Assembly: GCA_902614085.1 (NCBI GenBank)
Contig: CACMJS010000003.1
Coordinates: forward strand, 7,928-71,927
Direction: 5' to 3'
Origin: an uncultured Alphaproteobacteria bacterium
GTDB taxonomy: Bacteria; Pseudomonadota; Alphaproteobacteria; HIMB59; GCA-002718135
DNA: 64,000 bases
Shown here: piece by piece, positions 43,208 through 49,140 of the stretch
Position numbering within the stretch: position 1 is the first letter of the stretch
How the letters are laid out: the number at the start of each line of letters is the position of its first letter
Made by a program: the position numbers and the translations under genes
The notes under the pieces: generated by a model
The model's database searches: none
Seen by the model: only the letters and a program-made list of their open reading frames with translations
What the model was told of the DNA's origin: nothing

Positions 43208-43975
43208 CTAAAACATCTCATTTATTATTTTATTTAATTTTTGTGTTACTCTATCAATTATTTTTTTTCCTATCTGTGCATTGGATTTTCTAGGATCTCC
43301 AATAATTCCACTTTTACTTAATTCTTTAGTTACCCAAGCTTTCTTAATATTTTTCTCATAAGAAATGGTTTTAGTTGATAAATAATCGGAAGATAATCTA
43401 TGTTTAGAAATTTTAGATTGCCTAACTAGGTTTGGAAATAAATACAACATAATAGATGTTTCAAATTCTCCGCCGTGATAACCAAAGTCTTTTTCTTTAC
43501 TTGATATGATTCCTTTAAATTGATCAAATAAAAAATATGTGCCTTTTACTATGTTTATCTTAAATTCTGATTTCAATTCTTTAGCAATAATATCTATATG
43601 ACTAATTTGTCCACCATGACTATTTAAAAGTAATATATTTTTAAATTTCAATTTACATACATTTTCTAAAATTGACAAAGAGTGGGATATAAATTCCAAT
43701 GAATCTATACTTATTGTTCCATCAAAATCTGTATGTTCAGCAGCTGAACCAAAATATATTTCAGGCATAATTAAATATTTATTTGAATTATATTTTTTAT
43801 TGAATTCTAATAATATTCCTTCAAGAATTTTTTTATCAGTATTTAATGGAAGATGCGGACCGTGTTGTTCTATTGATGAGAATGGGAAAATTAAAACTGT
43901 TTTTCTATTTATTTTTTTAATTTCATTTGTTGTTAATTCTTCCCAAAAGTTTGTTAGCATTTTTTTATTATACAT
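43208..43975 (-). CDS. Creatininase/ArfB-family amidohydrolase
   Basis: EQHGPHLPLNTD, SAAEH..F.GTIS, NSHGG, HGGEFETS, GIIGDP. Start may be ATG 43960. Confidence 0.9.
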   Translation of the reverse strand: MYNKKMLTNFWEELTTNEIKKINRKTVLIFPFSSIEQHGPHLPLNTDKKILEGILLEFNKKYNSNKYLIMPEIYFGSAAEHTDFDGTISIDSLEFISHSLSILENVCKLKFKNILLLNSHGGQISHIDIIAKELKSEFKINIVKGTYFLFDQFKGIISSKEKDFGYHGGEFETSIMLYLFPNLVRQSKISKHRLSSDYLSTKTISYEKNIKKAWVTKELSKSGIIGDPRKSNAQIGKKIIDRVTQKLNKIINEMF

Positions 43976-43988
43976 TTATAAGTAAATT

Positions 43989-44948
43989 ATGAAATCTTAT
44001 TCTTTATGGATTGATAAAAAAAAACAAGCTAAAATTTATCAAAAAAAACTTGTTTACAATAAAAATAACAAAACAGTTTTAGTTAAAACTATTTACTCAG
44101 GTATTAGCAAGGGAACTGAAAAATTAGTTTCATCTAAAAGCGTAAGTAAGGATCAATTTGAATTAATGAAAGCCCCTTTTCAAGAGGGTTCTTTTAATTT
44201 ACCTATAAAATACGGTTATATAAATGTTGGGAATATTATCGATGGTCCAAGGAAATATATAAATAAAAAAATATTTAGTTTTTACCCTCATCAGGATTTA
44301 TATGAAATTTCTATTCAAAATTTAATTTTTTTACCAAAAGGAAATTTGAGAAAATATGTTCTAACTGCAAATATGGAAACAGCAATTAATATCTTTTGGG
44401 ACGCTCAATCTAAAAGTAATAACAAAATTCTAATTGTAGGACTTGGCTCTGTAGGATTATTAACTGCATTTTTTTTTAAAATTAATGGATATAAAAATGT
44501 TTATGTTTTTGATAATAATAAAAATAAAAGAAAAATTGCCAACTATTTAGGATTAAATTTTATTGATATAAGAAAGATTGAGAAAATAGATGTAGCAATA
44601 AACACTACAGCTAATTATAAAGTTTTAAATTCTTTAATGGAAAAATTATCTATCGAAGGAAAAATAGTAGAAGCTAGTTGGTATGGTAAAAATAAAGGAG
44701 AAGTTGCCTTGGGTGGGTATTTTCATTCTAAAAGATTAAAAATTATTAGCTCACAGGTATCTAAAATACCAAAATACATGAAAAATAAATATGATTTTGA
44801 GGGGAGATTAAAATTAGCAATTAAATCTTTAAAAAATTCACGATTAGAAAAATTAATTACTAGTGAAAGTAATTTTTTTGATTTAGAAAAAGATTACTAT
44901 AAAATCCTTAAAAATAAGGATACAATAATGCATCTAGTTAAATATTAA
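43989..44948 (+). CDS. MDR-superfamily NAD(P)-dependent dehydrogenase of the PTPS-IV cluster
   Basis: VKTIYSGISKGTE, PIKYGY, HQD, ANMETAIN, VGLGSVG, EASWYG, FHSKRLKIISSQV. Confidence 0.82.
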   Translation: MKSYSLWIDKKKQAKIYQKKLVYNKNNKTVLVKTIYSGISKGTEKLVSSKSVSKDQFELMKAPFQEGSFNLPIKYGYINVGNIIDGPRKYINKKIFSFYPHQDLYEISIQNLIFLPKGNLRKYVLTANMETAINIFWDAQSKSNNKILIVGLGSVGLLTAFFFKINGYKNVYVFDNNKNKRKIANYLGLNFIDIRKIEKIDVAINTTANYKVLNSLMEKLSIEGKIVEASWYGKNKGEVALGGYFHSKRLKIISSQVSKIPKYMKNKYDFEGRLKLAIKSLKNSRLEKLITSESNFFDLEKDYYKILKNKDTIMHLVKY

Positions 44949-44950
44949 TT

Positions 44951-47166: not shown

Positions 47167-47982
47167 ATTAACTATAATTTCATTTTCTAATTCATTAAAA
47201 TTATGTTTCGGTCTCATAGCTTTATTGAGATTTGAGATTTCTTTTAAATTTAATGAATTAATTCCGGAACCTATTAATATTGGTGCAATCATAAATTGAA
47301 GAATATCAATATATTTATTATTTATGAATTCTGAAATAGTTTTTGATCCTCCCTCTACTAAAATATTTTTATAATTAAGTTTTTTTATTTGCGTAATTAA
47401 GTTTTTAGTAAAATTTTTTTCTTTTAATCTTATTATTATGGAATTATTCAATCTAATTTTTTTATTACTTTTTGTAAAAACTATATTTTCATTACCATCA
47501 TTAAATATTTTATATTTATTATTTAACGAAAGACTGCCATCAATAATAATTCTTTTTGGATTTGTGCCCTTTATTTTTCTTGTTGTTAATAGGGGATCGT
47601 CTTTTTTAATAGTATTTGAACCTACAATAATTGCATCACTGATACTTCGTAAACAATGTAGATAAATAATACTCTTGGGATTATTTATGTAATGTGAATT
47701 ACCATTATTTAATGCAATTCTACCATCAATACTTTGTCCTATCTGAGCTATAACTAATTTTTTGTTTTTTCTTAATATCGGCATCAGGATATTTAAGATT
47801 GATTGATAAAATTTACTAATATTAATTTTAGATACCAGATTTTTATTTTTTATGTAAAAGTTACTTTTTGTTTTTGATGTTAAAGAAATACTATTTTTTT
47901 TAACCAATAAATATAAATCATTATTCTTTTTAGAATTTTTTATGAAATCTAATAAAATTCCTATATTTTTTGATGTTATCAT
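47149..47982 (-). CDS. RibD C-terminal reductase-domain protein (no deaminase domain)
   Basis: AQIGQSIDGRIA, HCLRSISDAIIVG, DDPLLT, LVEGG, APILIGSG. Confidence 0.9.
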   Translation of the reverse strand: MITSKNIGILLDFIKNSKKNNDLYLLVKKNSISLTSKTKSNFYIKNKNLVSKINISKFYQSILNILMPILRKNKKLVIAQIGQSIDGRIALNNGNSHYINNPKSIIYLHCLRSISDAIIVGSNTIKKDDPLLTTRKIKGTNPKRIIIDGSLSLNNKYKIFNDGNENIVFTKSNKKIRLNNSIIIRLKEKNFTKNLITQIKKLNYKNILVEGGSKTISEFINNKYIDILQFMIAPILIGSGINSLNLKEISNLNKAMRPKHNFNELENEIIVNLFLNS

Positions 47983-48018
47983 TTGTTTTTATTATTATTA
48001 TATCTATATAAAGTTTTC

Positions 48019-49140
48019 ATGAGTTTCAAATCTAATACAGGAACCATAATAGATAGGGCAATTAACGAACTCAGAACTGGAAGACCCTTAATAATTCAGA
48101 ATAATAAGGAATATTGGATGTTCTTTAATATAGAGCATTCCCAAAGTAAAATTTTTAACCAATTCAATAAGCACCTAATTGATGAAAAATATCTACTTAT
48201 TACTAAACAAAAAGCTCAATCAATTTTTAATAAGAATATTAAAAGTAATGTTTATTTCGAGATAAATCCTAAAACAGATGTAAATCAAATAATAAATTTA
48301 TTTGTCAATCCTCTTAGCAATAATAAAGTAATTAAATTTACCAATATTAAAAAATTCAAAGCTAAAAATTTTCATAATGTTTGTATTGATCTTTCCAAAA
48401 ATGCTAAAATGATACCATCACTAGTTTTTAAAAAAATTAATAAAAAATATTACAAAAATATAAATGAATTTGGATTTAAAAATGGAATTTTAATATTCGA
48501 TTACAAAGATTTATTGAAGCAAAATGAATTAATTTGTGAAAGTATCAAATTAGTTTCTAGCGCAAAAGTTCCACTGCCAAAAAATGAAAATTCTAATTTT
48601 AAAATATTTAAATCATATATTGGATCTGATAAACATGTAGCAATTATTGTTAATCCAAAAAAAATAAATAAAAAATCTGTTAATTTAAGAATACATTCAG
48701 CTTGTTTTACAGGTGATATTTTTCATTCTTTAAAATGTGATTGTGGTGAACAATTAAATCAATCAATTAATTACATGGTTAGAAATAATGGTGGAATTAT
48801 ATTGTATTTAGAACAAGAAGGTAGGGGAATAGGATTAGCTAATAAAATGAGAGCCTATTCTCTTCAAGCAAGGGGTATGGATACAATAGATGCCGATCAT
48901 AATATTGGTTTTTTAGATGATGAAAGAGATTTTAATATTGCAGCTAGAATACTTAAATTATTAAAAATAAATAAAGTTAATCTTATTACAAATAACAAAA
49001 ATAAAATAAATTCTATTAAGAAAGCTGGAATTAAAGTCGAAAATCAAATAAATACAAAGCCAACTTTGAATAAATTTAATAAAAATTATTTTAAAACAAG
49101 AGTTAAAAAAGCCGGGTATGGTCTTAAACTAGTAGTATAA
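48019..49140 (+). CDS. ribA: GTP cyclohydrolase II with degenerate N-terminal RibB-like domain
   Basis: RIHSACFTGDIFHSLKCDCGEQL (3 Zn Cys), QEGRGIGLANKMRAY, DERDF, LITNN. ATG at 48019 (track uses TTG 47983). Confidence 0.9.
   Translation: MSFKSNTGTIIDRAINELRTGRPLIIQNNKEYWMFFNIEHSQSKIFNQFNKHLIDEKYLLITKQKAQSIFNKNIKSNVYFEINPKTDVNQIINLFVNPLSNNKVIKFTNIKKFKAKNFHNVCIDLSKNAKMIPSLVFKKINKKYYKNINEFGFKNGILIFDYKDLLKQNELICESIKLVSSAKVPLPKNENSNFKIFKSYIGSDKHVAIIVNPKKINKKSVNLRIHSACFTGDIFHSLKCDCGEQLNQSINYMVRNNGGIILYLEQEGRGIGLANKMRAYSLQARGMDTIDADHNIGFLDDERDFNIAARILKLLKINKVNLITNNKNKINSIKKAGIKVENQINTKPTLNKFNKNYFKTRVKKAGYGLKLVV

Follow-up and report, generated by a model that had tools for sequence, protein, structure and literature searches.

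A PTPS-IV gene cluster in a marine alphaproteobacterium that may make a methylated pterin- or diaminopyrimidine-type glycoside from GTP

We describe a cluster of seven contiguous genes at positions 43208-49140 of a 64-kb stretch of DNA from an uncultured marine alphaproteobacterium (assembly GCA_902614085.1, contig CACMJS010000003.1); the whole stretch that was analyzed is referred to as the window. The cluster is built around a T-fold protein of the PTPS-IV type, a sizeable subfamily of COG0720 that is without an assigned reaction and is widespread (at least 120 genomes in at least seven phyla). On balance, we lean toward the view that the cluster makes a methylated pterin- or diaminopyrimidine-type glycoside from guanosine triphosphate (GTP). 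This view draws on family assignments, conservation, linkage, and gene fusions, from which every chemical step and the product are deduced.

Results

The seven genes were located from an open reading frame (ORF) listing and from Pfam and NCBIfam scans, and they carry the domains that an earlier note, made from the DNA alone, had named:

43208-43975 (-): creatininase-family metal amidohydrolase, 255 amino acids (aa); Pfam PF02633, 187.5 bits, full length
43989-44948 (+): MDR-superfamily NAD(P) dehydrogenase-like protein, 319 aa; weak Pfam matches to ADH_zinc_N and Glu_dehyd_C, confined to the Rossmann half
44951-45349 (+): PTPS-IV (SCO6650-type) T-fold protein, 132 aa; Pfam PTPS, 75 bits
45312-46376 (+): GT4 glycosyltransferase, 354 aa; Pfam Glycos_transf_1, 64.7 bits, and Glyco_trans_1_4, 50.2 bits
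46378-47166 (+): class-I S-adenosylmethionine (SAM)-methyltransferase-like protein, 262 aa; sub-threshold Pfam methyltransferase matches, DLGxGxG intact
47149-47982 (-): stand-alone RibD_C pyrimidine reductase, 277 aa; Pfam RibD_C, 112 bits, residues 77-248
48019-49140 (+): GTP cyclohydrolase II, 373 aa from the ATG; Pfam PF00925, 164.8 bits (residues 193-356 of the long ORF)

These genes are tightly packed. The dehydrogenase and PTPS-IV genes nearly abut (44948/44951), as do the GT4 and methyltransferase-like genes (46376/46378), while PTPS-IV and GT4 overlap by 38 nt (45312-45349) and the methyltransferase-like and RibD_C genes converge with an overlap of 18 nt (47149-47166), in agreement with the overlapping stops and starts previously described. 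The creatininase and dehydrogenase genes diverge across 13 bp (43976-43988). The cyclohydrolase ORF opens at a TTG codon (47983), and an internal ATG at 48019 gives a divergent gap of 36 bp; the 13- and 36-bp gaps of the earlier note are both correct if the cyclohydrolase starts at the ATG and not at the TTG. The three transcription units that it proposed must be amended, since the strand pattern (-, +, -, +) makes four blocks. Guanine plus cytosine (GC) content of the window is 27%, and a promoter and terminator scan of such AT-rich DNA was uninformative, with 53 promoter-like sites where chance alone would give 61.7. An Rfam search of the whole 64-kb window returned no family at gathering score and no tRNA, rRNA, or riboswitch; with zero Rfam matches across the window, regulation by a flavin mononucleotide (FMN) riboswitch was ruled out.

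To judge whether the arrangement is retained, we compared the window with two single-cell genomes. The same seven genes with the same flanks occur in the first (L001, GCA_902632715.1) at 75-79% DNA identity, and the second (L068, AG-913-B05) is 94.7% identical to window positions 38109-46111. Since the flanks are syntenic in both, the possibility that the cluster is a genomic island was rejected. Ratios of nonsynonymous to synonymous substitution rates (dN/dS) between the window and L001 ranged from 0.06 to 0.34 across all seven genes, values that are approximate since dS is near saturation. By this measure all seven genes are under purifying selection, in keeping with the suggestion that their retention in a streamlined genome reflects selective value.

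Linkage was then surveyed with a back-translated PTPS-IV motif in one genome per species (185,579 species), giving at least 120 matches. The scan returns uncentered 8-kb blocks, which were searched with the window's own proteins (phmmer); absences are therefore lower bounds, and counts were restricted to blocks with enough flanking DNA. The matches listed fall in Actinomycetota, Alpha-, Beta-, and Gammaproteobacteria, Cyanobacteria, Bacteroidota, Acidobacteriota, Myxococcota, and Planctomycetota (at least seven phyla). Among them, an MDR dehydrogenase gene adjoins PTPS-IV in 97 of the 105 loci with enough upstream DNA. Of 99 loci with sufficient DNA downstream, 85 have GT4; the methyltransferase-like gene was detected in 51 of the 70 loci that extend far enough, a lower bound for a divergent family. 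Both flanks were covered in 22 loci; RibD_C adjoins PTPS-IV in 17 of these, cyclohydrolase II in 10, and creatininase in 4, and at least one of the three is present in 20. The order dehydrogenase, PTPS-IV, GT4, methyltransferase-like is near-invariant, and in Stappia these four genes stand alone, the flanking 10 kb on each side being free of GTP-side genes.

Fusions were also found. A Nostoc locus (L012, 5492-7237, - strand) encodes cyclohydrolase II and RibD_C in one protein of 582 aa, GT4 and the methyltransferase-like protein are joined in a 644-aa protein of a Pseudomonadota metagenome-assembled genome (MAG; L126, 10396-12330, + strand), and a protein of 1032 aa (P0263) combines PTPS-IV, methyltransferase-like, and MDR domains. 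The existence of these fusions confirms functional coupling of the cluster genes. Likewise, since gene order is kept in L001 and L068 and linkage recurs across phyla, the arrangement is not due to chance. The genes do co-occur in relatives, being syntenic in both single-cell genomes and linked across at least seven phyla, and this cross-phylum linkage contradicts the notion that the genes other than the ribA/ribD pair vary independently. The earlier note had also suggested that the window copy may define the minimal core. By the linkage counts, the core is instead the four-gene run of dehydrogenase, PTPS-IV, GT4, and methyltransferase-like genes, and the window, which holds the full soluble set, is a complete, membrane-free version.

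The assignment of the COG0720 protein rests on several concordant results. Its residues 21-31 read FGPAQNMHGAT; as the earlier note observed, FGPAQxxHGAT replaces the CxxxHGH motif of QueD, with Ala24 at the Cys position and HGA in place of HGH. FGPAQ is the published signature of PTPS-IV, which has been reported to adjoin PF00925 and PF01872 (PMC5445326), and both of these families are encoded beside the window protein, a pairing that recurs in our genome survey. Among 1.84 billion representative proteins, 1,064 relatives were identified. FGPAQxxHGA occurs in most of the best 149 of these (representatives at 50% identity) and C-x(3-5)-HGH in none, ExxHGH not having been searched for in those representatives; in the window protein itself, neither the CxxxxxHGH motif of PTPS-II nor the ExxHGH motif of PTPS-III is present. 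In an alignment of 34 sequences, H14, S15, F21, G22, A24, H28, G29, T31, D51, L71, and D72 were invariant and E85 near-invariant, such that the T-x-E pterin anchor is kept in PTPS-IV. When the profile of this alignment was compared with the PDB, the SCO6650 structure (3D7J) was matched at E=1.1e-55, the next best being a PTPS (2G64, 3.2e-9), with QueD structures at 3e-6 or weaker. The window protein scored 37.4 against the QueD equivalog TIGR03367 (cut-off 89.25), and profile alignment to PTPS showed that the catalytic Cys and the third His of PTPS/QueD are both replaced by Ala in PTPS-IV. By sequence, the protein is PTPS-IV of the SCO6650 type. Membership in QueD/PTPS-I, PTPS-II, or PTPS-III was excluded by the motifs, the TIGR03367 score, and the separation of PDB profiles, which answers the question of whether it falls in the QueD or PTPS-II/III clades. 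Five relatives (P0123, P0124, P0144, P0146, and P0150; 375-855 aa) carry two or three tandem PTPS-IV domains per chain, an arrangement that would mimic a T-fold trimer.

The GTP-side enzymes were examined in the same manner. The cyclohydrolase scored 218 against the NCBIfam RibA subfamily NF001591 (cut-off 148), its family profile matched E. coli RibA (2BZ0) at E=3e-76, and both the Tyr (in KMRAYSLQ) and the zinc motif, made up of the CDC pair and one Cys in HSACFTGD, are intact. Over its first 180 residues, the protein can be aligned with the DHBP-synthase half of M. tuberculosis RibBA (4I14), but the acidic RENEGD loop is missing, Pfam DHBP_synthase gave no match in the protein, and every bifunctional NCBIfam model fell below its cut-off. 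The N-terminal domain thus appears to be derived from DHBP synthase and inactive, and the assignment as a bifunctional RibBA was dropped, the loop, the Pfam match, and the NCBIfam cut-offs all being missed. This long form accompanies the cluster in other Proteobacteria, whereas actinobacterial copies are short.

Loss of the cyclohydrolase Tyr is known to stop formate release, leaving a formylaminopyrimidine nucleotide; SCO6655, in which the Tyr is lost, reportedly yields this compound. The creatininase gene is adjacent in all 14 listed loci whose cyclohydrolase has Met, Leu, or Ile at the Tyr position, compared with 5 of 23 in which the alignment shows Tyr (the window included; 6 of 24 counting L126) and 1 of 6 with His. 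Comparison of 14/0 with 5/18 by Fisher test gave p=2e-6, uncorrected for phylogeny and with L126, a later Tyr-type case, outside the test; the non-Tyr loci come mostly from one actinobacterial clade plus a Halomonas and so represent few independent events. An RTHVLQ variant, with Thr-His at the Ala-Tyr position, was seen in Lentzea, Umezawaea, Actinomadura, Nocardiopsis, and one Actinomycetota MAG (L010, L011, L057, L067, L106, and L117), and in four of these six loci its gene immediately precedes PTPS-IV, without an intervening MDR gene.

The window creatininase itself has the metal-ligand motifs of its family (EQHGPH, SHGG, and GEFETS) and falls below every NCBIfam equivalog cut-off, including those for MftE (106/172), creatininase (79/235), and ArfB (NF033501, 31.3/180). 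Membership in the ArfB equivalog was accordingly set aside, only the PF02633 fold and the metal ligands being common to both. We propose that it is an ArfB-like deformylase of the formylaminopyrimidine or a hydrolase of another amide; the former role is supported by the presence of a creatininase gene beside 14 of 14 Tyr-less cyclohydrolases.

The window reductase consists of RibD_C alone (residues 77-248). Pfam found no deaminase domain in it, and its score against the bacterial bifunctional RibD model TIGR00326 (115.6) was below the cut-off of 156.35, so it was not classed as a bifunctional RibD. Its family profile matched archaeal-type diaminopyrimidine reductases best in the PDB (6P8C, 1.4e-49; 2AZN, 1.7e-44), with bacterial RibD at about 1e-39; the score against the archaeal-type model TIGR01508 was 94.5 (cut-off 186.45). 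Since there is no deaminase, the nearest reductases are of the archaeal type that acts before deamination, and PTPS-IV has the T-x-E anchor, the 2-amino group would be kept. These features favor a pterin- or diaminopyrimidine-type product, such that of the pterin, lumazine, or flavin-like compounds previously suggested the first is retained, and lumazine and flavin are disfavored by the missing deaminase and the archaeal-like reductase. Of the GTP-side genes, RibD_C also shows the most frequent linkage to the core, and its reaction is therefore probably the committed step.

Two explanations in which these enzymes belong to ordinary cofactor synthesis were considered. In the simpler one, the cyclohydrolase and reductase are riboflavin genes that happen to lie beside an unrelated sugar-modifying operon. 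The cyclohydrolase does exceed the RibA cut-off with all catalytic residues kept, and no second copy lies in the 64-kb window, nor was a paralogue or any further rib, fol, or cof gene found there. Coincidence would, however, have to account for the recurrence of the same neighbors in at least seven phyla, fused in some, for a reductase without a deaminase domain, and for a cyclohydrolase whose N-terminal domain seems inactive and whose long form accompanies the cluster in other Proteobacteria. Moreover, no Pfam family for ribH, ribE, or ribB was found among the scanned window ORFs of at least 100 aa, nor is an FMN riboswitch nearby, and we give this explanation only a very slim chance.

The second is a deazaflavin or flavin precursor route, in which the logic of ArfA/ArfB/ArfC would lead to a ribitylaminopyrimidine for FO/F420 or riboflavin, with PTPS-IV and its partners serving the cofactor. 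The reductase is indeed nearest to archaeal reductases of the riboflavin/F420 pathways, the association of creatininase with Tyr loss is reminiscent of ArfA/ArfB, and many of the listed carriers are Actinobacteria or cyanobacteria, in which F420 or FO is used. Also in its favor is an unpublished remark (PMC5041015) according to which PTPS-IV takes part in F420 synthesis. On the other side, the window contains no FO synthase, cofC/D/E, ribH, ribE, ribB, or RibD-type pyrimidine deaminase and no FMN riboswitch, and no radical-SAM family was noticed as a recurrent neighbor among the top 25 neighbor families, most of which are without annotation. In the F420 and riboflavin pathways as known, there is no role for a glycosyltransferase or a methyltransferase. 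The carriers also include Xanthomonas, Halomonas, and the marine cell, probably of the SAR11 type, from which the window derives, none of which is, to our knowledge, of a type that uses F420. In our estimation, a role in F420 or flavin synthesis is distinctly unlikely.

In an alignment of the dehydrogenase family, SxGTE, KYGY, PHQ, and GxGxxG were invariant, SxGTE and KYGY replacing the zinc ligands, and the family profile matched only the Rossmann half of polyol and alcohol dehydrogenases in the PDB (best, L-iditol 2-dehydrogenase, E=5e-11); its nearest solved relatives are thus polyol 2-dehydrogenases. The GT4 protein gave generic GT4 matches alone in NCBIfam, far below cut-offs; the overlap of its gene with PTPS-IV is also kept in L001, and 87 of 89 homologues from other genomes have the second Glu of EX7E in place. 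The methyltransferase-like family has invariant W8, L9, R12, D16, R20, and D42-G44-G46-G48, and its profile matched only generic class-I methyltransferases in the PDB (E>=3e-5), with no close solved relative.

Genes on either side of the cluster were evaluated as possible members:

42621-43184 (+): histidine-phosphatase-family protein, 187 aa; His_Phos_1, 80.7 bits; convergent with the creatininase gene
49143-49586 (+): BCP/PrxQ-type peroxiredoxin, 147 aa; AhpC-TSA, 89 bits; start 2 nt past the cyclohydrolase stop

The histidine phosphatase could act as a phosphatase for the 5'-phosphate, and the peroxiredoxin gene is probably co-transcribed with the cyclohydrolase. Both were rejected as members of the cluster, the former being adjacent only in L001 and L068 (2 of 125 loci) and the latter only in L001 (1 of 125).

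Elsewhere in the window, positions 2999-17879 hold a complete block for purine and urate catabolism, with genes for a membrane urate oxidase (Urate_ox_N), a CDA-fold deaminase, XdhC, the large and small subunits of xanthine dehydrogenase, HIU hydrolase, a PuuE-type allantoinase, OHCU decarboxylase, allantoicase, and ureidoglycolate lyase. These are followed by a PnrA/Bmp-type nucleoside ABC transporter and a phosphoribosyltransferase. A nucleoside hydrolase, a pseudouridine-5'-phosphate glycosidase (Indigoidine_A family), and a PfkB kinase at 31779-34589 look like a set for pseudouridine and nucleoside salvage. The ORF at 34570-37620 joins an APH-type phosphotransferase, Peptidase_M23, and a class-III aminotransferase in 1016 aa and is conserved in L001. 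Directly upstream of the cluster (39415-42412) lie a malyl-CoA/citryl-CoA-lyase-like gene and then a succinate/malate-CoA ligase-like pair, all highly conserved (dN/dS 0.03-0.07 vs. L001). Five EamA/DMT-family transporters are encoded in the window (1298-2194, 19478-20395, 49591-50484, 52193-53068, and 53089-53967), three of them within 5 kb downstream of the cluster.

Discussion

In the pathway that we propose for the methylated glycoside, cyclohydrolase II would open and deformylate GTP to 2,5-diamino-6-ribosylamino-4(3H)-pyrimidinone 5'-phosphate. The creatininase would strip leftover formyl groups and would be the sole deformylase in lineages whose cyclohydrolase has lost the Tyr. The archaeal-type RibD_C would then reduce the ribosyl to a ribityl group before deamination, diverting flux from riboflavin and keeping the 2-amino-4-oxo ring, and the zinc-less MDR dehydrogenase would oxidize a secondary ribityl hydroxyl, most simply that at C2'. 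PTPS-IV would hold the 2-amino-4-oxopyrimidine on its conserved Glu while ring closure or rearrangement gave a neopterin-like dihydropterin phosphate, to which GT4 would add a sugar; the methyltransferase-like protein would methylate the product. If oxidation takes place at C2', the reduction and oxidation together would be formally equal to the Amadori step of GTP cyclohydrolase I. The cluster could then make a neopterin-type pterin without cyclohydrolase I, by way of two redox steps (NADPH-dependent reduction by the archaeal-type reductase, then reoxidation by the MDR enzyme) and ring closure on the PTPS-IV T-fold, followed by glycosylation and methylation, although this more specific version seems doubtful to us.

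Several observations weigh against the proposed pathway. PTPS-IV is without the Cys and one His of catalytic PTPS and may be a binding or scaffold protein. The window cyclohydrolase keeps its Tyr, and a deformylase should therefore be unnecessary, yet the creatininase persists here and in five further Tyr-type loci; its role may differ from the proposed deformylation. The dehydrogenase is without the zinc ligands of polyol dehydrogenases, and zinc-less MDR enzymes often reduce C=C bonds instead of oxidizing alcohols. In GT4, Asn (EGFGMSLAN) takes the place of the second Glu of EX7E in both the window and L001 (10362-11435), and the dN/dS of this gene (0.34) exceeds that of the other six; the Asn could reflect altered donor binding or relaxed constraint. 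To these may be added the F420 remark cited above and the membrane enzymes that belong to the cluster in other phyla.

The membrane enzymes suggest that the end product is not a simple soluble glycoside. In a membrane- or envelope-linked version of the pathway, which overlaps with the one we propose, a polar alcohol would be put on a lipid or a periplasmic glycan by genes elsewhere, and the window would hold the soluble half. A CDP-alcohol phosphatidyltransferase lies beside the core in about 40 listed loci, mostly of Actinobacteria, and also in L126 and in the metagenome contig L127; a flippase-like protein with an LPG_synthase_TM domain occurs in 23 listed loci. An OpgH-type GT2 of about 600-650 aa is found in about 15 proteobacterial loci and adjoins MdoG in L126, and L127 has a sulfatase-family (phosphotransferase-like) protein beside the core (membrane- or envelope-neighbor loci: L003, L045, L049, L126, L127, L004, L005, L009, and L128). 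None of these four kinds of gene lies within the 64-kb window, however, the association with membrane enzymes is lineage-dependent, and we know of no lipid or glycan that bears such a group. We consider a membrane-linked product improbable, if less so than either of the two explanations from ordinary cofactor synthesis. An FkbM-type methyltransferase and cytochrome b561 also recur beside the core in other phyla.

If the cluster does make a pterin without cyclohydrolase I, the glycosylated and methylated product would be a new cofactor, ultraviolet (UV) screen, or signal found across many phyla, abundant streamlined ocean bacteria included, and would represent a new branch of GTP-derived cofactor metabolism. 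Our survey predicts that the reductase should accept the non-deaminated intermediate, that the creatininase is a deformylase that becomes essential once the cyclohydrolase Tyr is lost, and that the four-gene core is a functional unit. The window copy, in which seven genes, none for a membrane enzyme, are packed into about 5.9 kb of AT-rich DNA with short gaps, would be a handy cassette for heterologous expression.

Clusters of this type have been recognized for more than 10 years. The subfamily, its crystal structure (available since 2008), and its PF00925/PF01872 neighborhood are known, and the window is a further copy. In accord with the earlier note, we found no product assigned to the PTPS-IV/SCO6650-6655 cluster in searchable open papers and preprints, where the F420 remark was the sole statement encountered.

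The closest known system is the SCO6650-SCO6655-type cluster of Streptomyces (3D7J), which is like the window in the FGPAQ signature and in the loss of the Cys and third His, and which has the same order of dehydrogenase, PTPS-IV, GT4, and methyltransferase-like genes, with creatininase and cyclohydrolase II nearby too. In keeping with the earlier note, the Streptomyces loci have this gene set together with a CDP-alcohol phosphatidyltransferase and an LPG_synthase_TM flippase-like gene, and the window is indeed without both. The window cyclohydrolase is long, with an inactive-looking domain derived from DHBP synthase, and has Tyr where the Streptomyces enzymes have Met; a RibD_C reductase is present in the window but only in some Streptomyces loci.

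The archaeal ArfA/ArfB/ArfC route follows the same logic of GTP ring-opening, a creatininase-family formamide hydrolase, and reduction before deamination. It uses cyclohydrolase III, whereas the window encodes a bacterial cyclohydrolase II and a creatininase scoring 31 vs. 180 for ArfB, with no downstream riboflavin or F420 genes nearby. The cyanobacterial routes to biopterin glucoside and cyanopterin share with the window an origin from GTP, a T-fold protein with a pterin-anchoring Glu, and a group-1 glycosyltransferase encoded next to a PTPS-family gene, and cyanopterin contains methylated sugars. Pterin routes through cyclohydrolase I and PTPS enter by cyclohydrolase I, while the proposed route would enter by cyclohydrolase II and has a PTPS-IV without the zinc site and catalytic Cys. 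Finally, the toxoflavin (tox) cluster likewise has its own GTP cyclohydrolase II alongside a RibD-type enzyme and a methyltransferase, and its product is a heterocycle other than a flavin; ToxA is among the PDB matches of the methyltransferase-like family at a non-significant E=0.07. The tox cluster uses a full RibD with its deaminase and is without a T-fold protein, an MDR dehydrogenase, or a glycosyltransferase, all three of which are present in the window.

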